Origin: an uncultured Chloroflexia bacterium
GTDB lineage: Bacteria > Chloroflexota > Limnocylindria > Limnocylindrales > CSP1-4
Direction of reading: 5' to 3'
Assembly (NCBI GenBank): GCA_963749735.1
Contig: CAVVNZ010000006.1
Location: 21,797 to 85,796 of the forward strand
DNA length: 64,000 bases
Shown here: piece after piece, positions 17,215 to 31,694 of the stretch
Layout: each line of letters opens with the position of its first letter
How positions within the stretch are numbered: the stretch's first letter is position 1
Notes under the pieces: generated by a model
Database searches by the model: none
What the model saw: only the letters and a program-made list of their open reading frames with translations
Told to the model about the DNA's origin: nothing
Made by a program: the position numbers and the translations under genes

Positions 17215-17489
17215 CGGTCCGACTCTCCTTCTCGGTCGGCCGGCGGCGCCGGTCCGACCCTGCGTCTGCGGCGGGTCGATCCCGACGGCCGGCGGGAGCC
17301 GACGGGCAAGCTGGACGGTAGCGCGGACGTCTCACCGGAGACTTCTCGGGCGATCACCTCGCGCTTATGTCGCGATCCCTTGCGAGGCCTCGGCCCGGTC
17401 AGGCTCGACCGTCGGGGCTCGACCTGTCACCCTGTGATTCGGACGCTCCGGCACCGGCCCGCGAGGGTCCGCAGCGTCGAGGTGGGACC

Positions 17490-18059
17490 ATGTCTGACAA
17501 GCGTCCGAAGTCCCCGTCCACGAAGCGGTCTCGTCCGTCGGGCCGTGCGCTTGCTGAACATGCCGATCGGATCCTCGCCGACGCGCTCGAACGCGCGAAC
17601 GAGTACGAGCGGCAGGGTTTCCACAGCGCGACGATCCCACGGGCCGACCTGATCGCGAAGCTGAGCGGACGGACCGCCCACTCACCGTTCATCACCCAGG
17701 TCGGCTGGGGCAACGCGGTCCGCGGGGCGACGTTCGTCCTCGATTTCGGTCTGATGAATCCCGACCCGTTCCCCTACGAGATCGGCAACCTCGGGCTGTG
17801 CTTCTGCTACGCGGATGCCGGCGCGCTGAGCGATCCCGGGATGACCCTGGTCCGCGCGGAACCATCGGTCGGCATCGTCCAGGTCGAGATCGGCACGCTC
17901 AACGGTGCTCCGACGGCGTACTACCTCGATGCCATCCACACGATCCCCGCGACGTTCCGGACCGGCCCGGCCGATCTGGACTACTTCCTGTACCAGCCCG
18001 ACCCCTTCGCCGCGGGCGTCCTGCTCGAGCGCGGCACGATCCGGATCGACGTGGCCTGA
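17490..18059 (+). CDS. Hypothetical protein
   Basis: GAGGTG RBS; 189 codons with coding-like GC3. Confidence 0.7.
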   Translation: MSDKRPKSPSTKRSRPSGRALAEHADRILADALERANEYERQGFHSATIPRADLIAKLSGRTAHSPFITQVGWGNAVRGATFVLDFGLMNPDPFPYEIGNLGLCFCYADAGALSDPGMTLVRAEPSVGIVQVEIGTLNGAPTAYYLDAIHTIPATFRTGPADLDYFLYQPDPFAAGVLLERGTIRIDVA

Positions 18060-18103
18060 CCTGTCGGCACCGAGCTGACCGGTCGGCACCGAGCCGGCCG
18101 GTC
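18058..18103. repeat. Tandem 19-bp repeat, about 2.4 copies
   Basis: GACCTGTCGGCACCGAGCT / GACCGGTCGGCACCGAGCC / GGCCGGTC. Confidence 0.55.
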
Positions 18104-18162
18104 ACGGAACCGGACCGCCCCGGCCGCCGAGCCGGGCGAGCGGCCGTCGGTCCGTGCGGCGC

Positions 18163-18168
18163 TATACT
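18163..18168 (+). promoter_or_regulatory. -10 element of the pur operon leader
   Basis: TATACT about 230 nt upstream of purA. Confidence 0.6.
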
Positions 18169-18206
18169 CCGCGGGTGACGGAACGCGGGCCCGCCCCGCC
18201 TGACGG

Positions 18207-18306
18207 AGACCAATCCCATCGTTCGAGGAACGTTCGCCCCGTGAGACGAACGCCCATCGCCCTGGGGATCGTCGGAACGCCGACGGCTCGACGAAGGGAG
18301 CAGTCT
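18207..18306 (+). promoter_or_regulatory. Structured leader RNA (orphan riboswitch/attenuator candidate)
   Basis: Long interrupted closing stem enclosing three hairpins, between the -10 and a terminator. Confidence 0.5.
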
Positions 18307-18312
18307 ATCCCG

Positions 18313-18341
18313 GTCCTCGGCCCATCGGCCGGGGGCTTTTT
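18313..18341 (+). terminator. Intrinsic terminator in the purA leader
   Basis: GTCCTCGGCC-catc-GGCCGGGGGC followed by TTTTT. Confidence 0.8.
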
Positions 18342-18398
18342 CACGTCCGACACGCAGCCAGGCGCCCGCCCGACCCCTGATCGCGGGAGACGCGCCTG

Positions 18399-19712
18399 AT
18401 GCCGGCGACCGTGATCGTCGGCCTCCAATGGGGTGACGAAGGCAAGGGCAAGACCACCGACTTCCTCGCCGAGCAGGTGGCGATGGCGGTCCGCTACCAG
18501 GGCGGCGACAACGCCGGACACACGGTCGTCCTCGGGGACGAGGTGTTCAAGCTCCGGCTGACCCCGTCCGGCGTGCTCTACCCGCACATCGCCTGCATCA
18601 TCGGCCCGGGGGTCGTGGTCAACCCGGCGACGCTGATCGGCGAGCTCGACATGCTGACCGCGCGCGGTATCGACACCGCCAAGGTCCGGGTCAGTCGCAA
18701 CGCCCACGTGATCATGCCGTACCACGTCGCCCTGGACCGGGCGATGGAGACGCGACTCGACGGCGAGAAGGTCGGGACGACGAACCGCGGGATCGGCCCC
18801 ACCTACGCCGACCGGGCGTCGCGCCTCGGCCTGCGGATGGAGGATCTCCTCGACGAGACGACGTTCCGGCACCGGCTGGCCAAGGTCCTGCCGGATAAGA
18901 ACGCCCTCCTGGCGACGATGCCGGGGACGACGCCGTTCGATGCGGAACCGCTGGTCGCCCAGGCGATGGCCTGGGGCGAGCGCCTGCGACCCCATCTGGC
19001 CGACACGACATGGCTGGTCCAGGACGCGCTCCGTCGCGGGGATCACGTCATCCTCGAGGGCGCCCAGGGCACCCTCCTCGACATCGACCACGGCAGCTAC
19101 CCGTACGTGACCTCGTCCAATCCGATCGCCGGCGGTGCCTGCACCGGTGGTGGGATCGGACCCCTCCAGGTCGACGAGGTCATCGGGGTCATGAAGGCCT
19201 ATACGACCCGGGTCGGCTCGGGCCCGTACCCGACGGAGCTCACCGACGAGATCGGCAGCGGCATCGCCGAACGAGGACACGAGTTCGGGACCGTGACCGG
19301 TCGGCCGCGCCGGGTCGGCTGGTTCGACGCGGTCGCGCTGCGCTTCGCGGTCGCCGTCAACAGCGTGAGCAGCATCATGCTCAACAAGATCGACATCCTG
19401 TCGGGCATCGACGAGATCCTGCTGTGCGTGGCGTACGAGATCGACGGGCAGCGGGTCGACCATTGGCCGTCGAGCGCCGAGGTCCTGGCCAGGGCCCGGC
19501 CGATCTACGAGCGCTTCCCCGGCTGGTCCGAGCCCATCAACGCCGTGCGGACGCTCGCCGAGCTGCCGGAGAACGCCCGGCGCTACGTGACCGCGCTCGA
19601 GGTCGCGGCGGGGGTCCCGATCGTACTGGTCTCCGTCGGGCCCGAGCGGACGCAGACGATCGAGCGCGCCTATCGCCCGATGCGCCATCGTCCGACGGTC
19701 GCGACCGGATGA
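18399..19712 (+). CDS. purA: Adenylosuccinate synthetase
   Basis: GLQWGDEGKGK, QGGDNAGHT, EGAQGT, DHGSYPYVTSS, TTRVGSGP, GTVTGRPRR. Confidence 0.97.
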   Translation: MPATVIVGLQWGDEGKGKTTDFLAEQVAMAVRYQGGDNAGHTVVLGDEVFKLRLTPSGVLYPHIACIIGPGVVVNPATLIGELDMLTARGIDTAKVRVSRNAHVIMPYHVALDRAMETRLDGEKVGTTNRGIGPTYADRASRLGLRMEDLLDETTFRHRLAKVLPDKNALLATMPGTTPFDAEPLVAQAMAWGERLRPHLADTTWLVQDALRRGDHVILEGAQGTLLDIDHGSYPYVTSSNPIAGGACTGGGIGPLQVDEVIGVMKAYTTRVGSGPYPTELTDEIGSGIAERGHEFGTVTGRPRRVGWFDAVALRFAVAVNSVSSIMLNKIDILSGIDEILLCVAYEIDGQRVDHWPSSAEVLARARPIYERFPGWSEPINAVRTLAELPENARRYVTALEVAAGVPIVLVSVGPERTQTIERAYRPMRHRPTVATG

Positions 19713-21109
19713 GCCTCCCGATCATGCCGACCCGGATCCTCGTCGTCGGCGGAGGCGCCCGCGAGCACGCGCTCGCCTGGAAGCTCGCCGCAGAGCCCGG
19801 GGTCAACGAGGTGGCCGTGGCCCCGGGCAGCGCCGCGATCGGCGCCGAGCCGCGCGTGCGGACGCTGCGGGAGGCCGATGCGCTCATGCCGGCGGCCATC
19901 GTCGCGGCCGCGCGCGGCCATGCCTCCGAGCTCGTCGTCATCGGGCCGGAAGCTCCGCTCGAGGCGGGGGTCGCCGATGCCCTGACCGACGCCGGGATCG
20001 CGGTGTTCGGTCCCAGCCGGGCCGCCGCGCGGATCGAGACGAGCAAGGCGTTCTGCCACGACGTCGCCCTCGCGGCAGGCGTCCGGATGGCCGCCAGTGC
20101 GGCGTTCGCGGCGGGTGAGCTCGAGGCCGCGCTCGCCTATGCAGCGGCCCTCGCCGCGACCGGTCGGGGACTCGTGGTCAAGGCCGACGGCCTGGCGGCC
20201 GGCAAGGGCGTGACGGTCTGCGACGATCTGGCCGCGGCGGCCGATGCCCTCGTCGGCGCGCTGGGGCAGGCGCCCGACCCGGCGGCAGGGTCGGCCGGAG
20301 CCCCCCGCGTGGTGGTCGAGGAGCGCCTGTTCGGCCCCGAGGTCAGCGTGATCGCCGTGACCGACGGACGACGCGGTGTCGCGCTGCCGGCCGCTCGAGA
20401 CCACAAGCGACTCGGCGACGGCGATCATGGCCCGAACACGGGCGGGATGGGTGCGTTCAGCCCGGTGCCCGATCTGCCGGACGACGAGGCGGCGCGACTA
20501 CTCGCGGGGTTCCACCTGCCCATCCTGGCCGAGCTCGACCGACGCGGGACGCCGTTCCGCGGATTCCTGTACGCCGGGCTGATCCTGACCGACGACGGCG
20601 CCGTCCTCCTCGAGTGCAACGCCCGTCTGGGCGACCCGGAGGCCCAGGTCATCCTGCCGCGGCTCGCCGGCCCGCTCGGGCCGGTGCTCCTCGCCGCCGC
20701 GCTGGGCGACCTCGGCCCGGTCCTCGAGCGTCTCCCGGCCGGCAGCCTGTCGCTTCCGACGTTGCCCGGCGCCGCCGTCGGGGTCGTCCTCGCGGCCGAG
20801 GGGTATCCGGGGACGCCCAAGCGTGGTCAGACCATCGCGGGCCTCGACGAGGCGGCCCGGCTCGGCTGCCTCGTCTTCCACGCAGGAACGCTCGCTCGAC
20901 CTCCGAACGGCTACGCCACCAATGGCGGCCGGGTCCTGACGGTCGTCGGTCGCGGCGACGACCTGGTCTCGGCGCGAGCCCTCGCCGAGCGCGGCGCCGA
21001 TGCGGTCGCCTGGGATGGGCTCCAACGGCGCCACGACATCGGGCTGGATCCGGGCCCGGACACGGGCGAGCCCGCCGCGGCGGTCGCGATCCCGGGCGGT
21101 GCGCGATGA
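19709..21109 (+). CDS. purD: Phosphoribosylamine-glycine ligase
   Basis: GGGAREHAL, GPEAPL, KADGLAAGKGV, DHKR..GPNTGGMG, GDPEAQ, TNGGRVL. Confidence 0.96.
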   Translation: MSLPIMPTRILVVGGGAREHALAWKLAAEPGVNEVAVAPGSAAIGAEPRVRTLREADALMPAAIVAAARGHASELVVIGPEAPLEAGVADALTDAGIAVFGPSRAAARIETSKAFCHDVALAAGVRMAASAAFAAGELEAALAYAAALAATGRGLVVKADGLAAGKGVTVCDDLAAAADALVGALGQAPDPAAGSAGAPRVVVEERLFGPEVSVIAVTDGRRGVALPAARDHKRLGDGDHGPNTGGMGAFSPVPDLPDDEAARLLAGFHLPILAELDRRGTPFRGFLYAGLILTDDGAVLLECNARLGDPEAQVILPRLAGPLGPVLLAAALGDLGPVLERLPAGSLSLPTLPGAAVGVVLAAEGYPGTPKRGQTIAGLDEAARLGCLVFHAGTLARPPNGYATNGGRVLTVVGRGDDLVSARALAERGADAVAWDGLQRRHDIGLDPGPDTGEPAAAVAIPGGAR

Positions 21110-22419
21110 TCCGCCGCTACACGCTGCCGGAGATGGGCGCCGTGTGGTCCGAGGCCGCCCGGTTCGAGGGGATGCTCAAGGTCGAGCTCGCCGTCGCCCG
21201 GGCCCAGGTCGGTCGCGGTCTCGTCCCGGCCGAGGCGTTCGCGGCGATCGAGAGCCGCGCCCGGATCGACCTCGACCGGATCGCCGAGATCGAACAGACC
21301 ACCGACCATGACGTGATCGCCTTCGTGAGCCAGGTCGCCGAGACGGTCGGGCCGGAGGGTCGCTATCTCCACCTCGGGCTGACCAGCAGCGACGTCGTCG
21401 ACACAGGGCTCGCCCTCCAGCTGCGCGCCGCCGGGGAACGACTCCTCGGCGATTGCGATCGGCTCCTCGTCGCGCTCGTCGCCCGGGCACGGACCGAGGC
21501 GGCGACCGTGATGATGGGACGTACCCACTCGGTCCACGCGGAGCCGACGACGCTCGGGGCGAAGATGGCCGGCTGGGCCTTCGAGCTCGACCGCGACCGA
21601 CGGCGGCTGGCCGACGCGGTCGCCGAGATCGCCACCGGCAAGATCTCCGGCCCGGTCGGCACCTACAGCCACCTCGACCCCGAGTTCGAGGCCGAGGTCC
21701 TGGCCGCCCTGGAGCTGCGCGTCGATCCGGTCAGCACGCAGATCGTCCAACGCGACCGCCACGCGGCGCTGCTGGTCGCGATCGCGATCACCGGCGGTTC
21801 GCTCGAGCGGTTCGCGACCGAGGTGCGCAACCTCCAGCACACGGAGATCGACGAGCTCCAGGAGCCCTTCCGCGCCGGCCAGAAGGGCTCGAGCGCGATG
21901 CCCCACAAGCGCAACCCGATCCTGTCCGAGCGGATCGCCGGATTGGCCCGGCTCCTTCGGGGGTATGCCGGAACGGCCCTCGAGGACCAGCCGCTGTGGC
22001 ACGAGCGCGACATCAGTCACAGCTCGGCGGAGCGCGTCCTCCTCCCGGACGCGACCATCCTGCTCGACTACATGCTGGTCAGGATGACCGGCCTCATCGA
22101 CGGGCTGATCGCCCGGCCCGAGCGGATGCGGGAGAACATCGAGCGGGGGCTCGGCCTCCATGCCTCGTCCCGGGTCCTCGTCGCGCTGGTCGAGGTCGGA
22201 GGCCTGAGCCGCGAGGACGCCTACGCGATCGTCCAGCGCTGCGCTCTTCGGGCGGCCGATGAGCGACAGCCGCTGCGCGAGCTCCTGGCGACCGATCCGG
22301 CCGTCGCCCGACTGCTGCCGCTGGGGCGGCTCGACGAGTGCTTCGACGACGCAGCGTTCCTCCGTCACGTGCCGACGATCGTGGCCCGGCTCGACCGGAT
22401 CGAGGCGACCGCGAGATGA
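21106..22419 (+). CDS. purB: Adenylosuccinate lyase
   Basis: MIRRY, HDVIAF, HLGLTSSD, GRTH..HAEPTT, GSSAMPHKRNP. Confidence 0.97.
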   Translation: MIRRYTLPEMGAVWSEAARFEGMLKVELAVARAQVGRGLVPAEAFAAIESRARIDLDRIAEIEQTTDHDVIAFVSQVAETVGPEGRYLHLGLTSSDVVDTGLALQLRAAGERLLGDCDRLLVALVARARTEAATVMMGRTHSVHAEPTTLGAKMAGWAFELDRDRRRLADAVAEIATGKISGPVGTYSHLDPEFEAEVLAALELRVDPVSTQIVQRDRHAALLVAIAITGGSLERFATEVRNLQHTEIDELQEPFRAGQKGSSAMPHKRNPILSERIAGLARLLRGYAGTALEDQPLWHERDISHSSAERVLLPDATILLDYMLVRMTGLIDGLIARPERMRENIERGLGLHASSRVLVALVEVGGLSREDAYAIVQRCALRAADERQPLRELLATDPAVARLLPLGRLDECFDDAAFLRHVPTIVARLDRIEATAR

Positions 22420-23366
22420 GCGCGCCCGTCGGCTTCGTCCGCTCGGGCAAGGTCCGAGACCTGTACGCCCTGGACGACGCTCGACTCCTGCTCGTCGCCT
22501 CCGATCGACTGTCGGCGTTCGACGTCGTCCTGCCGACGCCGATCCCGGACAAGGGTCGCGTCCTCACCGGCCTGTCGCGGTTCTGGTTCGCCGAGACCAC
22601 CTCGATCGTCGCCAACCACCTGCTGTCGGTCGACGTCGGCCGGCTCGATCCCGGCTCCGTGCCGGTCGAACCGAGCGGTCTGCGCGGTCGATCGATGATC
22701 TGTCGCCGGGCCCAGGTGCTCCCGATCGAGGTCATCGTCCGCGGCTACCTCGCCGGCTCCGGCTGGAAGGACTACGGACGCACGCGGGCGATCGGCGGTC
22801 AACGTCTGCCGATCGGCCTGCGCGAGAGCGACCGTCTGCCGGAACCCATCCTGACCCCGTCGACCAAGGCCGAGGCGGGCCACCACGACGAGAACATCGA
22901 CCTGTCGACGATGGTCGACCACCTCGCGGTCGTCGAGCTCGACGGCCACCCGCTCGGCTTCGCGGCGGCGGACGAGCTGACCGAGCGGATCCGCGATCGG
23001 GCGATCGCCCTGTATCGCTTCGGGGCGGCCGTCGCGGCCCGGGCCGGGATCCTCCTGGCCGACACGAAGTTCGAGTTCGGCCTGCTGCCCGACGGGCAGC
23101 TCGTCCTGATCGACGAGGTCCTCACGCCGGATTCGTCGCGCTTCTGGGATGCTGCGGCGTACGAGCCGGGACGCTCCCAGGCGAGCTACGACAAGCAATA
23201 CGTCCGCGACTGGCTCGAAGCCCAGCCGTGGGACAAGACCGCGCCGGGTCCGGCGCTGCCGGTCGAGGTGGTCACCGGTACGCGGGCCCGCTACGTCGAA
23301 GCCTTCGAACGGATCACCGGCGCGTCGTTCGCGCGTTATCTCGAGGAGGACGTCATCGCCCGATGA
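22416..23366 (+). CDS. purC: SAICAR synthetase
   Basis: GKVRDLY, SDRLSAFD, RGYLAGSGW, TPSTKA, DTKFEFG, DEVLTPDSSRFW. Confidence 0.96.
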   Translation: MSAPVGFVRSGKVRDLYALDDARLLLVASDRLSAFDVVLPTPIPDKGRVLTGLSRFWFAETTSIVANHLLSVDVGRLDPGSVPVEPSGLRGRSMICRRAQVLPIEVIVRGYLAGSGWKDYGRTRAIGGQRLPIGLRESDRLPEPILTPSTKAEAGHHDENIDLSTMVDHLAVVELDGHPLGFAAADELTERIRDRAIALYRFGAAVAARAGILLADTKFEFGLLPDGQLVLIDEVLTPDSSRFWDAAAYEPGRSQASYDKQYVRDWLEAQPWDKTAPGPALPVEVVTGTRARYVEAFERITGASFARYLEEDVIAR

Positions 23367-23668
23367 GCACCACGACGGCATTCCGGTACGCGGTCAATGT
23401 CACGCCGAAGGACGGCATCCTCGACCCACAGGGCCGGGCCGTCGAGGGGAGCCTGCCCCATCTCGGGGTGACCGGCGTGTCCGGGATCCGGGTGGGCCGG
23501 CGCGTCGAGCTGACCGTCGAGGCCCCGACCGAGGCGGGCGCGCGGGCCGTCGTGGAGGGCCTCGCCAGCGAGCTGCTCAGCAATCCGCTCATCGAGACGT
23601 TCACGATCGAGCTCCTTGGAGAGCTCTCGGCGACGACCTCCTCGGCCGGCGACGGCGGTCCCGCCTGA
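23363..23668 (+). CDS. purS: FGAM synthase subunit PurS
   Basis: ILDPQGRAV, LLSNPLIE. Confidence 0.93.
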   Translation: MSTTTAFRYAVNVTPKDGILDPQGRAVEGSLPHLGVTGVSGIRVGRRVELTVEAPTEAGARAVVEGLASELLSNPLIETFTIELLGELSATTSSAGDGGPA

Positions 23669-24417
23669 TGGTCCGCATCGGCGTCGTCCTGTTCCCCGGA
23701 TCGAACCGCGACGTCGACGCGGTCAATGCGCTCCGGGTGGCCGGCGCTGAGCCCGTCGTCCTGTGGCACGAGTCGGCGGACCTCCAGGGTGTCGACGGGA
23801 TCGTCCTGCCCGGCGGCTTCGCCTACGGCGACTACCTCCGGGCCGGGGTGATCGCCCGGTTCTCGCCGGTCATGCGGGCCGTGGCGGCGTTCGCCGGCCA
23901 GGGCGGGCACGTCCTGGGCATCTGCAACGGCTTCCAGGTCCTGACCGAGGCCGGCCTCCTGCCCGGCGCGCTCCTGCGCAATCGGTCGCTGCGGTTCGTG
24001 TCGCGCGAGATCGCGATCATGGCCGAGCGCCTCGACTCGCCGTTCACCCGGGCGATCGACGCGCGTCGCCCGCTGCGCATGCCCGTGGCTCACGGCGAGG
24101 GCTGCTATTACGCCGACCCGGGCGCCCTCGACGCGCTCGAGGCGGACGGCGGGGTCCTGTTCCGCTATGTTCACCTCGACGGCAGGGTCGCCGGCGGCGA
24201 GGACGATCGAGCCAACCCGAATGGATCGCTCCGGGCGATCGCCGGCGTGACGAACGCGGCCGGCAACGTCGCGGGTCTGATGCCGCACCCGGAGACCGCG
24301 GTCGAGACGGTCCTCGGGACCGACGACGGGCTCGGGATCATCCGCTCTCTCGTCGACGCAGCGGCCGAACGAGCGCACGGCGATCACCCGGCCATCGTCA
24401 GCGTGGCCGCCCGATGA
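23668..24417 (+). CDS. purQ: FGAM synthase glutaminase subunit
   Basis: [38 protein letters not shown]. Confidence 0.96.
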
Positions 24418-26795
24418 GCGCACGGTCGATGAGCACCGTGGCCGTGCCGCCGGTCGTCGATGAGCCGCTCCACCGACGCCTCGGCGTGACCGACCAGGAG
24501 CTGGGGGTGATCGAGACGAAGCTCGGTCGGCCGCCGAACGACCTCGAGCTGGCGATGTTCAGCGTGATGTGGAGCGAGCACTGCTCGTACAAGAGCTCGA
24601 AGCCGCTCCTCCGGACGCTGCCGACCGCGGGCGAGGGCGTGGTCGCCGGGCCCGGCGAGAACGCCGGCGTCATCTCGATCGGGGACGGTCTGGCCGTCGC
24701 GTTCAAGATCGAGTCGCACAACCATCCGAGCGCCGTCGAGCCCTACCAGGGGGCCGCCACCGGCGTCGGCGGGATCCTCCGCGACATCTTCACGATGGGT
24801 GCGCGGCCGATCGCGGTCCTTGACGCGCTGCGCTTCGGTGACCCGTCCGACCCGCACACCCGGCATCTCGTCAACGGGGTGGTCCGCGGGGTCGGCGGCT
24901 ACGGCAACTGCGTCGGCGTCCCGACCGTCGGCGGCGAGCTCGTGTTCGACCCGACCTACGGCGGAAACCCGCTGGTCAACGTCATGGCGATCGGGCTGCT
25001 CGATGAGCGGCTGCTGACCCTCGCCTCGGCTCCCGGACCTGGGAACCTCGTGGTCCTGTTCGGGTCGACGACCGGCCGCGACGGGATCGGCGGGGCGTCG
25101 GTCCTCGCCTCGGCCACGTTCGGTGCCGATGAACCGTCCAAGCGCCCGACGGTCCAGGTCGGCGACCCGTTCGCCGAGAAGCTGCTCATCGAGGCGAGCC
25201 TCGAGCTGATCGAGCGGGGCCTGGTCGAGGGTCTTCAGGACCTCGGCGCCGGCGGGATCACCTGCGCGACCTCCGAGACCGCCGATCGAGCCGGCACGGG
25301 GATCCTGGTCGATCTCGATGCGATCCCGCGTCGCGAGCCGGGGATGGCCCCGTTCGAGGTGATGATCTCGGAATCCCAGGAACGGATGCTCGCGGTCATC
25401 CGCCCCGAGCGGTGGGAGGCCGTCCGGGACGTCTGCCTCCGGTGGGGTCTGCCCGTGGCGATCATCGGCCGGGTCACCGCCGACGGCGACGTGACGATCG
25501 TCGAGGGCGGTCTCGACCCGGACGGCCGGCCGGCGGCGGCGGCCGTCGAGATCGCCCGGATCCCGGCGCCCGCGCTGACCAGCGAGGCGATCGTCCACGA
25601 CCGCCTGGCGACCCCACCGCCGCGTCGCCGGGCCGCCCCGGCCCCCGGCAGCGCCGACGAATCGAGCGCGGGCCTTCCCGAGCGGGGGATGGATCCCGGT
25701 GCCGTCCTGGTGTCGCTGCTCGGCGGGCCCAACCTGTCGAGCCGGCAATGGGTCCACGAGCAGTACGACAGCCACGTCCAGGCGAACACCGTCGCCGGTC
25801 CGGGGCACGGCGCCGCCGTCCTCCGGATCAAGGGCACCACGAAGGCGCTGGTCGCCTCGACGGATGGCAACCAGTCGGTCGGGCAGGTCGATCCGTGGCT
25901 CGGCGCCGCGCTGAGCGTCGCCGAGGCGACCCGCAACGTGTCGATCACCGGCGCCCGCCCGCTGGGCGTCACGAACTGCCTCAACTACGGCGATCCGACC
26001 CGTCCCGAGGCGTTCTGGCAGCTCCAGGAGGGCGTCCGCGGGCTCGGCGACGCCTGTCGCGCCCTGAGGCTGCCGGTGACCGGCGGGAACGTGTCCCTGT
26101 ACAACGAGTCGCCCGCCGGGGCGATCGCCCCGACGCCCGAGATCGGGGTGGTCGGCCTGCTCGACGACGTGGCCACCCGCGTCGGACCCGGCTTCACCGC
26201 GACCGGCGACTCGGTCGTCCTGGTCGGCTCGTCGACGCCCGGGTTGCTGGGCAGCGCCTACGCCGAGCTCGCCGGCCTCGCGTCCGAGGACGGTCCGCCG
26301 TCGCTCGACCTGGCGCGCGAGAGAGCGCTCCAGGCCTTCATCCGTGAGGCGATCGGCCGCGGCCTCGTCGCCTCCGCCCAGGACGTCAGCGGGGGAGGGC
26401 TCGCCGTGGCGATCGCCGAAGCGTGCATCTGGGGACCCGAGAGCGGCATCGGGGCGGTCCTCCGCCTGCCGATCGCCGGTGCCCCGGCGGTCGAGCTGTT
26501 CGGCGAGAGCCCGTCGAGGCTCATCGCGAGCTGTCGCCCGCGGCACGCCCCGGCGCTGATGCTGCTCGCCCGCCAGCACGGGCTCCCGGTCGACGAGCTC
26601 GGCTCGGTGGGGGGCGACCGGCTCTTCATCGAGCTGGCCGGCCTCGGCGCGACCGGGGCAGCCGAGGAGCGCGGATCGCGGATCGCCGATGCGGTCGATG
26701 TCCCGGTGGCGGACCTGGCTCACGCCTGGGGGTCCGGGCTCGCCCGGGCGCTCGGTGAGGACGGCCGGTCGGCCTCATTGCCGGAGGACCGCTAG
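24414..26795 (+). CDS. purL: FGAM synthase subunit PurL
   Basis: [48 protein letters not shown]. Confidence 0.97.
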
Positions 26796-28298
26796 ATGTG
26801 CGGCGTGTTCGGGGTCGTCCTGCCGTCCGGCCGCGACGCCGAGGCCGCCCAGATCGCCGCGCTCGGACTGTTCGCCCTCCAGCATCGCGGGCAGGAGTCC
26901 GCCGGGGTGGCCGTCAGCGACGGTCGCGAGCTGATGCTCTACAAGGATCTGGGGATGATCGCCACGGTCCTCGACGAGCGACGCCTCCCCAGCCTGCGCG
27001 GGAACCTGGCCATCGCTCACTGTCGCTACTCGACGACCGGCTCGACGGTCTGGGAGAACGCCCAGCCGACCTTCCGGCTCGGCCCCCGACGGGCGGTCGC
27101 GATCGGTCACAACGGTAACCTGGTCAACACGCGCGATCTCCTCGGCCAGCTGCGCGGTGGGCGGACCCGCCTGCCCGCATCGACCGATACGGAGCTGCTG
27201 ACCGCGCTCCTGGCGGACGAGCCGGCTGCGGACACCGTCGACGCCCTCGTCCGGGTCCTGCCGCGGGTGCGCGGCGCGTACAGCCTGGTCGTCCTCGACG
27301 AGCGTCGGGTCATCGGCGTCCGCGACCCGTTCGGGTTCCGGCCGCTCGTCCTCGGCCGGCTGCCGGCTCCGGACGCGATCGACGGGGCCGTCGAGCCCGG
27401 CCTGTGGGGTGATGACGACGCCGGCGCCGGTTGGATCCTCAGCTCCGAGACGACGGGGCTCGACATCGTCGGCGCCGAGTTCGTGCGCGACGTGGAGCCC
27501 GGCGAGATCGTCGTCCTCGAGCCGGGCCGCGCCCCACGCTCGGTCCGGTTCGCCGACGCGAAGCCGGCGCTGTGCGTCTTCGAGCTGATCTACTTCGCCC
27601 GACCGGACTCGTACATGGAGGGTCGGAACCTCTACGAGGCACGCCGGAAGATGGGGATGCAGCTGGCCGACGAGCATCCGGTCGCGACCGACCTGGTGAT
27701 GCCGGTCCCGGACACGGGTGCGCCGGCCGCGGCGGGGTACGCGGAGCGCTCCGGCATCCCGTACCGCGAGGGCCTGGTCCGCAACCGCTACACCGGACGG
27801 ACGTTCATCCAGCCTTCCCAGACGCTGCGCCATCGGGGCGTGACGATGAAGCTCAACCCGCTGCGCGAGGTCGTCCGCGGGCAGCGCCTGACCGTCGTCG
27901 ACGATTCGATCGTCCGCGGGACGACGACCAAGCAGATCGTCGCGCTTCTGCGCAAGGCGGGTGCGGCCGAGGTCCATGTCCGGATCAGCGCCCCGCCGAT
28001 CTACCACCCGTGCTTCTACGGGATCGACACGCAGATCGAGACCGAGCTCATCGCCTCGACCCACTCCACCGAGCAGATCCGCGAGTTCATCGGTGCCGAT
28101 TCGCTGGGCTACCTGTCGATCGCCGGGGTCCTGGCCGCGCTCGACCTGCCCTACGACCGGTTCTGCTTCGCGTGCTTCGACGGCAACTACCCAGAACCGG
28201 TCCCGTATGACGCCAGGAGCCGGAAGTTCATGCTCGAGGAGGAACCCGGGTCGGGCCTGGCACTGCCGATCGCCCCCGGGTCCGGTGGGCGTGGCTGA
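26796..28298 (+). CDS. purF: Amidophosphoribosyltransferase
   Basis: N-terminal MCG, LQHRGQE, RYSTTG, HNGNL, VDDSIVRGTT, Fe-S Cys motifs. Confidence 0.97.
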   Translation: MCGVFGVVLPSGRDAEAAQIAALGLFALQHRGQESAGVAVSDGRELMLYKDLGMIATVLDERRLPSLRGNLAIAHCRYSTTGSTVWENAQPTFRLGPRRAVAIGHNGNLVNTRDLLGQLRGGRTRLPASTDTELLTALLADEPAADTVDALVRVLPRVRGAYSLVVLDERRVIGVRDPFGFRPLVLGRLPAPDAIDGAVEPGLWGDDDAGAGWILSSETTGLDIVGAEFVRDVEPGEIVVLEPGRAPRSVRFADAKPALCVFELIYFARPDSYMEGRNLYEARRKMGMQLADEHPVATDLVMPVPDTGAPAAAGYAERSGIPYREGLVRNRYTGRTFIQPSQTLRHRGVTMKLNPLREVVRGQRLTVVDDSIVRGTTTKQIVALLRKAGAAEVHVRISAPPIYHPCFYGIDTQIETELIASTHSTEQIREFIGADSLGYLSIAGVLAALDLPYDRFCFACFDGNYPEPVPYDARSRKFMLEEEPGSGLALPIAPGSGGRG

Positions 28299-29418
28299 TC
28301 GCCGTCGGGCGTACGTCCGGTCGGGCGTCGATGTGACCGCGGGCGAACGGACCGTCGAGCTCATCCGTGACGCGGTCGAATCGACCCGTCGGCCGGAGGT
28401 CCTCGGCGGTCTCGGCGGGTTCGCCGGCGCCGTCGGTCTGCCGGCCGGCATGCGCGACCCGATCCTGGTCAGTGCCACGGACGGGGTCGGGACGAAGACC
28501 GCGATCGCCTCGGCCCTCGACCGCTTCGACACGATCGGGATCGACCTCGTGGCGATGTGCGCCGACGACGTCGTGTGCAGCGGCGCCGCCCCCCTGTTCT
28601 TCCTCGACTACGTCGTCGTCGGGCGGCTCGACCCGGGCAACGTCGCCGAGCTGGTCGGAGGGGTGGCCGCCGGCTGCCGGATCGCCGGTTGTGCCCTGGT
28701 GGGCGGGGAGACGGCAGAGCACCCCGGGATGATGGGCGGCGACGAGTTCGACCTGGCCGGGTTCTGCGTCGGCGTGATGGAGCGTGACCGGTCGATCGAC
28801 GGCTCGGGGATCCGCGCCGGCGATGCGATCGTCGGCCTGGCGGCTTCGGGTCTTCACGCCAACGGCTTCTCGCTCGTGCGGGCGCTCCTGGCCCAGTACG
28901 ACCTCGACCTGCGATCGCCCTACCAGGAACGGCTCCGACGCTCGATCGGGGACGCGGCCACGGAGGCGGCCTTGTCCGCCGAACCGAACCTGTCGCTGGC
29001 GACCCTCGGCGAGGTGCTCCTGACCCCGACGACGATCTATGCGAGCGCGATCCTCCGGTTGCGGACGGCCCTCGAGGCAGCCGGACACGACCTGCTCGGC
29101 GTCGCCCACATCACCGGCGGCGGCCTGCCCGGCAACGTCCCGCGGATGCTCGGCGCCGACCTCGCCGCGCGGATCGACCCGACGACCTGGCCGATGCCGT
29201 CGGTGATGCGCCTGTTCGGGGCCCTCGGCGGCCTCGAGGACGACGAGGTCCGGGCGACGTTCAATGGCGGCCTCGGGATGGCGGTCGCCGTCGCCCCCGG
29301 GGCGATCGACCTCACGGTGGCAGCCCTCGGGGCCGAAGGGATCGCGGCGTGGCAGGTCGGCCACGTCGTGGAGCGCCCGGCGTCGGGCGAGACGTACATC
29401 GAGGGGCTGCTGCGGTGA
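28291..29418 (+). CDS. purM: AIR synthetase
   Basis: Y..SGVD, TDGVGTK, GGETAEHP, GLHANGFSL, AHITGGG, TFNGG. Confidence 0.96.
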   Translation: MADRRRAYVRSGVDVTAGERTVELIRDAVESTRRPEVLGGLGGFAGAVGLPAGMRDPILVSATDGVGTKTAIASALDRFDTIGIDLVAMCADDVVCSGAAPLFFLDYVVVGRLDPGNVAELVGGVAAGCRIAGCALVGGETAEHPGMMGGDEFDLAGFCVGVMERDRSIDGSGIRAGDAIVGLAASGLHANGFSLVRALLAQYDLDLRSPYQERLRRSIGDAATEAALSAEPNLSLATLGEVLLTPTTIYASAILRLRTALEAAGHDLLGVAHITGGGLPGNVPRMLGADLAARIDPTTWPMPSVMRLFGALGGLEDDEVRATFNGGLGMAVAVAPGAIDLTVAALGAEGIAAWQVGHVVERPASGETYIEGLLR

Positions 29419-31694
29419 CGGACCGGCTCGGTCGGATCGCCGTCGGCGTGTCCGGACGAGGCTCGAACCTCCGGGCATTGGCCGCCGCGGCCGATCGCGG
29501 CGAGCTCGGCGGGTCGATCGCCCTCGTCTTCGCGGACCGCTCCTGTCCCGCCCTCGACTGGGCGGTCGAGCAGGGGATCGAGACCGCGCTCGTGCCGGCC
29601 GCTCCGCGCGACGACGCCGCCGCGCGTGCCGAGGAGGACGCCGCGCTGGCGTTGACTCTCGACTCGGTCGCTCCGGACCTCGTGGTCCTGGCCGGATACA
29701 TGCGGATCGTCGGCCCGATCACGCTCGCGGCGTTCCCGGGCCGGATCCTGAACATCCATCCGGCCCTGCTGCCCGCGTTCCCCGGCGCGCATGCGGTCGC
29801 CGACGCACTCAGCCACGGTGTAGCGGTGAGTGGGGCGACGGTCCACCTGGTCGACGCCACGCTCGACGGGGGTCCGATCGTAGCGCAGGAGGCGGTCCCG
29901 GTCCTGGCCGACGACGACGAGGCGTCGCTCCGGGCGCGGATCCAGGCGGTCGAGCATCGGCTGCTCCCGCGAACGGTCGCGCTGGCGCTCGCCGACGCGC
30001 TGGAGCTCGATCCCCGGACGAACCGGGTGATCGTCGACGTCGAACGAGCCGAGGCCGAGCTCCCTCGGCCGCGGCGCGCGCTCCTGTCGGTCAGCGACAA
30101 GACCGGCCTCGTCGACCTGGGTCGAGGCCTCGTCGGGCTCGGCTTCGAGCTGGTGTCCACCGGCGGGACGGCTCGGACGCTGCGGGACGCCGGGTTGCCG
30201 GTGACCGACGTGGCCGCCGTGACCGGCTTTCCCGAGATGCTCGACGGACGGGTCAAGACCCTCCACCCGCGGATCCACGGAGGGATCCTGGCCGATCGGC
30301 GAGCGGTCGATCACCGCCGTCAGCTCGTCGCAGCCGCGATCGCTCCCTTCGAGCTCGTCGTGGTCAACCTGTACCCGTTCGCCGCCGCGGCCGAGCGACC
30401 CGGGATCGGGTTCGACGCGCTCGTCGAGGAGATCGACATCGGCGGTCCGTCGATGGTCCGCGCCGCCGCCAAGAACCATGCCAGCGTGGCGATCGTCAGC
30501 AGCCCGGCCCGCTACGGCATCGTGCTCGACGCGCTCGCACGGGACGGGGACGTCCCGCTCGGATTGCGGTCCGCCCTGGCCGTCGAGGCGTTCCGTCACA
30601 CGGCCGCCTACGACGCGCGCATCGCCGCCGAATTGCCCGCCCGGATGGCCGCCGCCGGGATCGATCTCCCGGACGAGCCGGGGCTGCCGGGCGCCGGTGA
30701 CCCGTACCCGCCCACGTTGACGATCGGGCTCGAGAAGGTCGAGACGCTCCGCTACGGCGAGAACCCGCACCAGTCGGCGGCGCGCTACCGGCGCCCCGGG
30801 GCCGTTGACGCCGGTCCGTTCGCGACCGGCGTCCCGCCGGTCCAGGGCAAGGCGCTGAGCTACAACAACGTGCTCGACGCGGCGGCCGTGGCCGCACTGA
30901 CCCGCAGCCTGCGCGGACCCGGTTGCGTCATCGTCAAGCACACCAACCCCTGCGGAGCGGCGGAACGCCCCAGCCTGCTCGAGGCCTGGGGGGCCGCGCT
31001 GGCCGGCGACCCGGTGTCGGCCTTCGGCGGCGTCGTCGGCCTGACCGGGGCCGTCGACCGGACCCTGGCGGAGGCGCTGGTCGGCATCTTCCTCGAGGTC
31101 GTCGTCGCTCCGGCGTTCGGGACCGATGCCCTGGACATCCTTGCCACCAAGCCCAACCTCCGACTCGTCGTCGATCCGTCCCTCGGGAGCGCCGCCGCCG
31201 CGATGCCGTCACCGCCCGACCGGCTCGGTGCGATCCGGACCGCCGGCGGCGCCGTCCTCGTGAGCACGCCGGACACCGTCCCCGACGACCCGTCGACCTG
31301 GTCGCAGGCCACGACCCGGGCACCGTCGGCCGGTGAGCGACGCGACCTCGATCTCGCCTGGCGACTGTGTCGGGGCGTCACGAGCAACGCCATCGTCCTG
31401 GTCAAGGATGGCCGGCTGGTCGGTCTCGGCTCGGGACAGACGAGCCGGGTCGATGCGGCCCGGCAGGCGGTGGACCGGGCGCACGCCATCTCCGGCCCTG
31501 ACTCGACCGTCGGCGCCGCCTGCGGTTCGGACGCGTTCTACCCGTTCCCCGACGCGGTCGAGGTCTGTCTCGCCGCGGGGGTCGGCGCGTTCGCCCAGCC
31601 GGGCGGGTCGGTCCGCGACGCCGAGGTCGTCGCCGTGGCCGAGGCCGCGGGCGCCGCGATGCTCCTGACGGGCGTCCGCCACTTCCGCCATTGA
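29415..31694 (+). CDS. purH: Fused GAR transformylase (PurN) + AICAR transformylase/IMP cyclohydrolase (PurH)
   Basis: SGRGSNL, LAGYMRI, NIHPALLP, LDGGPI, then in the same frame RALLSVSDK, GRVKTLHP, IDIGGP, LRYGENPHQ, KHTNPCG, RHFRH. Confidence 0.95.
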   Translation: MTDRLGRIAVGVSGRGSNLRALAAAADRGELGGSIALVFADRSCPALDWAVEQGIETALVPAAPRDDAAARAEEDAALALTLDSVAPDLVVLAGYMRIVGPITLAAFPGRILNIHPALLPAFPGAHAVADALSHGVAVSGATVHLVDATLDGGPIVAQEAVPVLADDDEASLRARIQAVEHRLLPRTVALALADALELDPRTNRVIVDVERAEAELPRPRRALLSVSDKTGLVDLGRGLVGLGFELVSTGGTARTLRDAGLPVTDVAAVTGFPEMLDGRVKTLHPRIHGGILADRRAVDHRRQLVAAAIAPFELVVVNLYPFAAAAERPGIGFDALVEEIDIGGPSMVRAAAKNHASVAIVSSPARYGIVLDALARDGDVPLGLRSALAVEAFRHTAAYDARIAAELPARMAAAGIDLPDEPGLPGAGDPYPPTLTIGLEKVETLRYGENPHQSAARYRRPGAVDAGPFATGVPPVQGKALSYNNVLDAAAVAALTRSLRGPGCVIVKHTNPCGAAERPSLLEAWGAALAGDPVSAFGGVVGLTGAVDRTLAEALVGIFLEVVVAPAFGTDALDILATKPNLRLVVDPSLGSAAAAMPSPPDRLGAIRTAGGAVLVSTPDTVPDDPSTWSQATTRAPSAGERRDLDLAWRLCRGVTSNAIVLVKDGRLVGLGSGQTSRVDAARQAVDRAHAISGPDSTVGAACGSDAFYPFPDAVEVCLAAGVGAFAQPGGSVRDAEVVAVAEAAGAAMLLTGVRHFRH

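Follow-up and report, generated by a model that had tools for sequence, protein, structure and literature searches.

A conserved leader with an open reading frame running into purA as a candidate ribosome-dependent attenuator of the de novo purine operon in Candidatus Limnocylindrales

Genomic context and features of the leader

Analysis of the window, by which we mean the whole 64,000-nucleotide stretch of DNA from an uncultured Chloroflexia bacterium, revealed 11 purine genes in one tight co-directional cluster (purADBCSQLFMNH). The first gene, purA, was recognized among the window ORFs by its Pfam match (PF00709, E 1.9e-171). The genes purE and purK were not found in this cluster, which is followed by metG-like, tatD-like, and AMIN-domain ORFs. 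The stretch at 18163–18345, which forms the leader described here, lies between purA and an unannotated ORF (17367–18059, forward strand) without a Pfam match. This ORF precedes the leader only in the three closest genomes; the left neighbor of the leader is not conserved, the upstream genes differing from genome to genome, and no candidate regulator protein was linked to it. The features of the locus are listed in Table 1.

The hexamer TATACT, already picked out in a first-pass annotation made from the sequence, was present, with counterparts at the equivalent place across the family. An extended −10 element (TG two bases upstream of the hexamer) was found in 71/93 leaders; the window has CGC here and not TGC. 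Judging from spacing only, the RNA is predicted to start near 18175, about 7 nt past TATACT. The U-tailed terminator reported in the same annotation was equally real: its U5 run ends 57 nt before the purA ATG (18399), the hairpin alone has a folding energy of −21 kcal/mol (z −3.3, 1 of 200 shuffles being as good), its stem covaries, and a run of at least three U follows the hairpin in 81/93 leaders. A simple consensus scan for promoters and terminators flagged neither at the leader. The P3 loop, CCCCGUGAGA, is near-invariant and contains a stop-start overlap, GUGA, at 18241–18244; the frame opening there, uORF2, crosses P4, the conserved linker, and the terminator. The GAGG within R2 is likely the ribosome-binding site of uORF2 in the window's genus.

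Table 1. Positions of the leader elements and the downstream purine genes in the window
Feature	Position	Strand	Remarks
−10 hexamer TATACT	18163–18168	+	−10-like hexamer at equivalent place in 92/93 leaders with enough upstream DNA
P0, 5' G+C hairpin GCGGG ... CCCGC	18185–18199	+	In most genera; loops variable
R1, conserved ACGGAG	18203–18208	+	Shine-Dalgarno-like; in other genera would serve the 10-codon uORF1
R2, UUCGAGGAA	18222–18230	+	Contains GAGG, 12 nt upstream of the loop GUG
P3, CGUUCG/CGAACG	18231–18252	+	Hairpin 1 of the first-pass annotation; arms 18231–18236/18247–18252
uORF2	18241–18399	+	GUG start, 52 codons, UGA overlapping the purA AUG (UGAUG); from translation of the window stretch
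P4, CGUCGG/CCGACG	18270–18285	+	Hairpin 3 of the first-pass annotation; arms 18270–18275/18280–18285
R4 GGGAG and near-invariant linker GUCUAUCC	18296–18310	+	Linker 18303–18310; conserved across 46 genera, third codon positions included
Intrinsic terminator	18312–18341	+	11-bp stem, loop CAUC; hairpin 18312–18337, U5 18337–18341; inside uORF2
purA	18399–19712	+	
Purine operon: purA, purD, purB, purC, purS, purQ, purL, purF, purM, purN-purH	18399–31694	+	Pfam and ORF coordinates; closely packed

Search for known RNA families

Searching the whole 64-kb window against the 4227 families of Rfam 15 gave no match at the gathering score. With the threshold relaxed to E ≤ 10, the interval 18000–18450 returned only eight chance-level matches, the best at 17 bits against a cut-off of 42; these were unrelated sRNA, CRISPR, and snoRNA families, all far below their cut-offs. 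The models for the purine riboswitch (RF00167, gathering score 37 bits), a three-way junction with a conserved loop-loop core, and for the ZTP/pfl riboswitch (RF01750, 39 bits), whose two subdomains are linked by a pseudoknot, matched neither the window, nor 18000–18450, nor the 2.9-Mb genome, which is 77.65% complete. No ykkC-type model of Rfam 15 (the PRPP, ppGpp, and guanidine-I riboswitches share the ykkC fold) matched at the locus, and the PyrR-binding-site family had no match at the leader. The leader lies outside the RNA families described in Rfam, in keeping with the first-pass statement that consensus sequences of the guanine, ZTP, and PRPP riboswitches were not seen; a known family, named there as a possible refutation of an orphan element, was not matched.

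An identity as SRP RNA was rejected: the SRP RNA of this genome is encoded elsewhere (contig 11, 1171–1270, reverse strand; RF00169, 77.1 bits), and the family matched there and not at the leader. The 6S model found nothing in the genome, although it detects 6S in just 5/14 control genomes, and the covarying terminal hairpin speaks against a 6S-like closing stem in the leader. In searches of openly accessible full texts, we found no description of a purA leader motif, a Limnocylindria riboswitch, or purine leader-peptide attenuation.

Distribution and association with purA

The leader occurs once in its own genome. In BLAST searches, 16 of the 18 remaining genomes of the genus had a full-length copy and three further genera had weaker ones, and the leader stood directly before purA in all 20 BLAST loci. 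A covariance model built from 17 sequences matched 125/151 genomes, a tally that takes in two unpublished genomes, and 46/49 genera of a single Chloroflexota family whose record titles read Candidatus Limnocylindrales, nearly always once per genome. In a class-level scan, the model matched 39/44 genomes of this family and 4/106 genomes of other families, one of them strongly; outside the family, a scan of the phylum gave matches in 0/147 genomes. Scanning for the exact pattern in one genome per GTDB species yielded 89 loci. Among the 80 titles listed, nearly all were Chloroflexota (for the most part Candidatus Limnocylindrales or metagenome-assembled genomes of uncultured Chloroflexia), and three named other taxa (Thermoleophilia, Candidatus Sulfotelmatobacter, and Candidatus Dormiibacterota).

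In 101/109 loci examined, purA lay directly downstream on the same strand. The eight exceptional loci scored 21.8–28.7 bits, and none stood before purA or any other pur gene; their sequences suggest false matches (terminator-like hairpins, inside an apparent coaD ORF). Together with the Rfam result, this position before purA upholds the earlier description of an orphan leader or attenuator of the de novo purine operon. In several of the genomes without a match, the 5' end of purA was not assembled, and other unmatched genomes carry divergent versions of the leader that the model missed.

Some of the outlying loci show how the leader varies. The sole strong match outside the family, in a genome of another family of the class (E 6.6e-14), has the P3 loop CCUCCAGA, which lacks RUGA, and a changed lower P3 helix; even so, an open frame runs through this leader to a UGAUG at purA. 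One family genome has no leader before purA, which there follows a coding region whose end resembles, by eye, a MazG/HisE-type pyrophosphatase, with TGAC before the ATG. A further locus is a natural deletion variant, about 90 nt upstream of purA, that keeps the promoter, the 5' hairpin, and GGUGGAGCCGU and then passes straight into the AGCUGAUG of purA; P3, P4, and the terminator are gone, and the leader GGAG now stands about 9 nt before the purA start. In four genomes of a single genus, the core is kept, namely GGAGGAG, UUGCCCGA, the P3 loop CCYGUGAG, and the YAUCC linker, and all four leaders examined lack the hairpin and U run. Their linker lies 22–75 nt upstream of the purA start, with a conserved GCGC after it; these terminator-less variants may have a translational expression platform.

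Family anatomy and conserved helices

Across the family, the elements of the leader follow a common order. In the 5' part, the −10 hexamer is followed by six bases, by GUCCUCGA in many genera, by a G+C hairpin, and by a GGAG(G) tract. The middle part runs from CGUUGC or CGAUCGC through CUCGAGGAAGG to P3 with the loop CCCGUGAG, then through CACCUUCG to the variable hairpin P4, and the 3' part consists of (AC)GGGAG, the linker GUCUAUCC, and a terminator beginning with GGUCCC. Compared with other genera, the window's genus has lost 8 nt and with them the GAAGG...CCUUC extension of P3, a deletion that brings GAGG close to the loop GUG. Purine-rich tracts (GGAGG, GAGGAAGG, and GGGAG) are conserved, and (C)G-N-GAG-like motifs recur as CGGAG, CGUGAG, and CGGGAG. 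About 60 near-invariant nucleotides lie outside the proven helices and are fixed at every codon position. Within the linker, the rare codon UCU included, all three codon positions are fixed; the base that varies most in it falls at the second position of a codon, which can read P, Q, or R.

The minimum-energy fold of 18163–18345 reproduces the closed four-way junction with three hairpins proposed in the first-pass annotation. Its energy is ordinary for a G+C-rich sequence (z −0.84, with 35 of 200 shuffles as good), and the opposite strand folds equally well. We examined pairing in a 95-sequence covariance-model alignment. In this alignment, which is fitted to the P3, P4, and terminator helices, 89.3% of the cells of these three helices were paired, compared with 38–47% when the partners were slid. 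Compensatory changes were found in 22/23 of their pairs (P3, 7/7; P4, 6/6; terminator, 9/10), with a covariation score of 0.345 versus 0.03–0.07; even within the window's genus, P4 shows a U-A to C-G change.

The remaining parts of the proposed junction behaved differently. The closing stem (AGAC/GUCU, UCCC/GGGA, UCG/CGA, and UCGAG/CUCGA) and hairpin 2 (CCCA/UGGG) together gave 60.2% paired cells compared with 59.0% in shuffles, and they hold only in the window's genus (0.75–0.97; elsewhere 0.31–0.84). When MAFFT alignments were folded with RNAalifold, for the whole set as well as for groups B, C, and D, the closing helix differed from group to group. Hairpins 1 and 3 of the earlier proposal (P3 and P4) are thus supported by covariation among the relatives, as is the terminator, and the closing stem and hairpin 2 are not; the four-way junction stands in the window's minimum-energy fold and in its genus but was rejected as the fold of the family.

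Several other long-range pairings were rejected: GAAGG:CCUUC as the base of P3, the CCCGU of the P3 loop with ACGGG, GGAGG with CCUUC, GGGR with UCCC as an antiterminator, UUGC with GCAG, and the 5' GUCCUCGA with UCGAGGA. These are pairable in many sequences, but their covariation does not exceed that of shuffles, or whole groups lack them. In the covariation tests, five candidate pairings beyond the proposed junction, two of them possible antiterminators, did no better than shuffles, and in the 95-leader alignment the candidate pairings of the linker GUCUAUCC showed no covariation. Scanning upstream for a partner of either terminator arm yielded just generic G+C-rich complementarity; the scan of the leaders revealed no antiterminator that tracks the variable bases of the terminator, and none of the pairings tested supported a conserved multi-helix junction or pseudoknot. 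From the covariation of P3, P4, and the terminator and the failure of the other pairings, we infer that the conserved fold is three or four hairpins joined by highly conserved stretches.

Reading frames in the leader

The P3 loop carries RUGA in 88/95 leaders (GUGA in 85 and AUGA in 3). The frame that begins at the RUG of this loop is free of stops up to purA in 88/88 leaders, which are related and not independent sequences, and 44% of mononucleotide shuffles are also stop-free in this frame. The third frame is open in 60/82 leaders, open frames being common at about 70% G+C, and within the genus the open-frame counts in all three frames reflect just the rarity of stops in this DNA.

The first stop of this frame falls within −10 to +1 of the purA start codon in 75/88 leaders, typically as UGAUG, and at +13 in the other 13. 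Loop start codon and purA start are separated by 98 to 452 nt. Among the 43 distinct distances, 30 equal 2 mod 3, and leaders in another frame have their stop shifted to match (TAG-ATG at −3 and TGAC-ATG at −4). AUG replaces GUG in variant loops and is still in frame. All 13 divergent leaders without a GUGAG loop also have an open frame through the leader, with the stop at −5 to −2 or at +13, and in the terminator-less genus the loop-GUG frame ends at −6 to −2 of the purA start in 4/4 leaders. That the lengths change by multiples of three, that the stop moves with the frame, and that GUG alternates with AUG is hard to explain other than by selection for translation from the P3 loop to the purA start.

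The way in which ribosomes might reach the loop differs between groups. Downstream of the predicted RNA start, the loop codon comes first among the start codons of its frame in most sequences. A 10-codon frame, uORF1, with a UUG start, an SD-like GGAG 5–9 nt before it, and its end on the loop UGA, was found together with its SD in 61/88 leaders (group A, 31/37; B, 17/17; C, 9/9; D, 2/14; the window's group, 0/8); the window's genus has no canonical uORF1 start. An SD-like 4-mer located 4–17 nt before the loop start codon was present in 7/8 leaders of the window's group versus 2/79 others, and a direct SD-like site before the loop GUG was present in 2/63 leaders of the groups with uORF1 and in 0/14 of group D. 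With uORF1 in 2/14 and an SD-like site in 0/14, group D shows no evident ribosome loading. In 36/95 leaders, there is no SD-like 4-mer before purA.

The uORF1 peptide (M-L/P-E/Q-E-G-...) contains no run of regulatory codons. Across the family, uORF2 varies from 32 to 150 codons, and its middle and C-terminal parts cannot be aligned; the pieces MRRT..., QSIQVPG, and GLF recur, but conservation of the peptide is confined to places where the RNA itself varies at no codon position or forms a covarying stem. Because the peptide varies and is conserved only along with the RNA, the passage of the ribosome, and not the peptide, seems to matter.

Continuity of the leader with purA

Between the end of the leader and the purA start lie 9 to 351 nt (median 54), and 19/95 leaders have a spacer of at most 25 nt. 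Since such short spacers leave no room for a second promoter, transcription must reach purA by passing the terminator. RNA-library contigs from four soil metatranscriptome runs extended from 18247–18287 across the terminator into purA, the longest covering 18247–19181; they are about 97% and not 100% identical to the window, and they leave transcription, ends, and strand unproven. All begin at 18247–18287, and none covers 18070–18231. Taken with the association described above, these observations support an element that acts in cis on the de novo purine operon, as its leader or attenuator.

Proposed mechanism

Because the leader is an open frame up to the purA start, we favor ribosome-dependent attenuation, either instead of or beside a ligand aptamer. 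Our preferred reading, in which we place moderate confidence, is that the leader is a pyrBI-like, ribosome-dependent transcription attenuator controlling purADBCSQLFMNH, so that ribosome traffic probably decides both the transcription and the translation of the purine operon. The first-pass annotation had proposed a new ligand-sensing RNA or a protein-dependent attenuator; the attenuator is retained, and the evidence points to the ribosome as its agent rather than, or besides, an aptamer.

In the proposed sequence of events, transcription would begin about 7 nt past TATACT, and the RNA would fold into the conserved hairpins, exposing in the P3 loop a GUG (rarely an AUG) start codon whose last two bases are shared with a UGA stop. 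The ribosome would, in most genera, load at the SD-like GGAG, translate uORF1, and melt the 5' strand of P3, then stop on the loop UGA, step back by one base, and restart on the GUG. In the window's genus, where uORF1 would have been lost, the GAGG 12 nt before the GUG would load the ribosome directly. The uORF2 ribosome would run through P4, the GUCUAUCC linker, and the terminator and end on the UGA overlapping the purA AUG. If it followed closely behind RNA polymerase, the terminator hairpin could not form, the 11-gene operon would be transcribed, and the same ribosome would be handed on to purA; if translation lagged or had not started, the hairpin would form and transcription would stop at 18341.

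The analysis shows the conservation, the three helices, the terminator, the open frame, and the placement of its stop codon; that uORF2 is translated and that its translation blocks termination is inferred, as is whatever sets the coupling. As for the signal, our guess is polymerase speed dependent on purine NTPs, or a ligand or protein acting on the P3 start site or the conserved core. A more specific version, which we offer tentatively as a possibility, makes the leader a purine sensor of a new type, built around the restart codon in the P3 loop: a two-frame ribosome relay would read the rate of RNA synthesis, as set by the purine NTP supply or by a core-bound ligand, and would convert it into termination and translation of the whole pathway. 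Such a sensor would give the pyrBI mechanism its first purine counterpart, in a Chloroflexota class that is uncultured.

Some findings weigh against the attenuator model. The stretches fixed at all codon positions argue for an RNA-level function beyond what the ribosome model provides, and neither an antiterminator nor a pause site emerged from the pairing tests and the arm scan. The absence of evident ribosome loading in group D also counts against it, as do the missing canonical uORF1 start in the window's genus and the frequency of open frames at this G+C content, and ribosome passage does not explain the conservation of GGGAG-GUCUAUCC; the linker may hide a further ligand, protein, or pause signal.

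Alternative explanations

The near-invariant nucleotides bring up a metabolite riboswitch, in which the core from R1 to GUCUAUCC would be an aptamer for a purine base, a nucleotide, PRPP, ZMP, or ppGpp, and the terminator, or in some genera the ribosome-binding region, would be the expression platform, leaving the open frame a secondary role such as coupling to purA. Some 60 such nucleotides outside the proven helices, several hairpins, attachment to a biosynthetic operon, and the failure of known families to match all fit this reading, as does the occurrence of the core both with a terminator in most genera and without one in the terminator-less genus (4/4 leaders), an arrangement common for riboswitches. 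We nevertheless judge it unlikely, for the closing stems and other candidate pairings do not covary, no junction or pseudoknot is supported, no antiterminator tracking the terminator was found, the element occurs as one copy per genome with one gene association only, and an aptamer alone leaves the conservation of the frame unexplained. The same conserved sequence could instead be bound by a protein, with a PyrR-, TRAP-, or L-protein-like binder, possibly a pathway enzyme, recognizing the P3 loop, the GUCUAUCC linker, or both and controlling termination or the initiation of uORF2. An invariant 8-nt hairpin loop, an invariant linker without an RNA partner, the recurring (C)G-N-GAG-like motifs, and a single site per genome would suit such a binder. 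This reading is improbable in our view, since the upstream genes vary without a linked candidate protein, neither the PyrR-binding site nor any other Rfam family matched, and the RUGA overlap, including the change from GUG to AUG, already explains the invariance of the loop.

Two further readings place the function in a product of the leader itself. If uORF2 were a real gene for a small protein of about 32–150 aa and the hairpins were incidental to its mRNA, the open frame, the lengths in steps of three, the stop coupled to purA, and the recurring peptide pieces would fit. That is very improbable: the length varies from 32 to 150 codons, the middle and C-terminal parts do not align, the conserved pieces coincide with nucleotides fixed at every codon position or with covarying stems, and within the linker it is a second codon position that varies most (P, Q, or R). 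The first-pass annotation had also allowed for an independent sRNA with its own promoter and terminator, purA being transcribed from a separate promoter, and the −10 box, the strong terminator, and the single copy agree with this. We find it barely credible and have dropped it, as the spacer to purA shrinks to as little as 9 nt and, where it is 25 nt or less (19/95), is too short to contain a second promoter, the terminator is missing from one genus, the frame continues to the purA start, and the RNA-library contigs, although they leave transcription and strand unproven, bridge the terminator into purA.

Significance and comparison with known systems

Purine operons are known to be controlled by PurR-type repressors and by guanine, ZTP, and PRPP riboswitches, and we know of no purine operon under a translated leader of the pyrBI type. 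Limnocylindria are abundant soil and peat bacteria that are, to our knowledge, known only from metagenome-assembled genomes. If the ribosome-dependent attenuator is correct, it would make ribosome-polymerase coupling a more general means of sensing nucleotide supply. It would also provide a testable regulatory element for Limnocylindria, and the RUGA restart site in a hairpin loop would represent a compact module for translational coupling.

The leader shares with the purine-related riboswitches (RF00167, RF01750, and the PRPP/ppGpp classes of ykkC subtype 2) a structured leader and a terminator before purine genes; it differs from them in having no Rfam match or supported junction and in carrying an open frame coupled to the first gene. 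With trp-type attenuators, it has in common a short SD-bearing ORF (uORF1) followed by a terminator, and in both the position of a ribosome would decide the folding. The differences are that uORF1 has no regulatory codon run, a 2:3 antiterminator is unsupported, and a second frame crosses the terminator. A trp-type attenuator was rejected on the missing codon run, alternative pairings that do not covary, and the lack of a specific partner for a terminator arm. PyrR-dependent pyr attenuation in Bacillus and relatives likewise concerns a nucleotide operon with a conserved hairpin upstream of the terminator, although the purA leader has neither a PyrR-site match nor a linked regulator gene.

The closest resemblance is to the pyrimidine attenuators of E. 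coli. In pyrBI, the terminator lies inside the translated leader frame, a ribosome close behind the polymerase prevents the hairpin, and UTP acts through the speed of the polymerase; the pyrBI (pyrL) and rph-pyrE attenuators reportedly both work in the manner set out in the review by Turnbough and Switzer. Like them, the purA leader combines its own promoter with an intrinsic terminator just before the first gene of a nucleotide-biosynthesis operon, and, as in pyrBI, the leader frame extends through the terminator hairpin (uORF2 at 18241–18399 in the window; open in 88/88 leaders). Two related papers deal with stringent-promoter control, reiterative transcription at the pyrBI promoter, and pyrG (PMC6524683, PMC7039003). 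No NTP-sensitive pause tract was identified in the purA leader from its sequence, there is no sequence homology to pyrBI, and the purA leader is much richer in conserved RNA structure and sequence. It further differs from pyrBI in controlling a purine and not a pyrimidine operon, in a Chloroflexota host, and in its layout: a stop-start overlap in a conserved hairpin loop links two frames, the second of which terminates on the start codon of the first gene.
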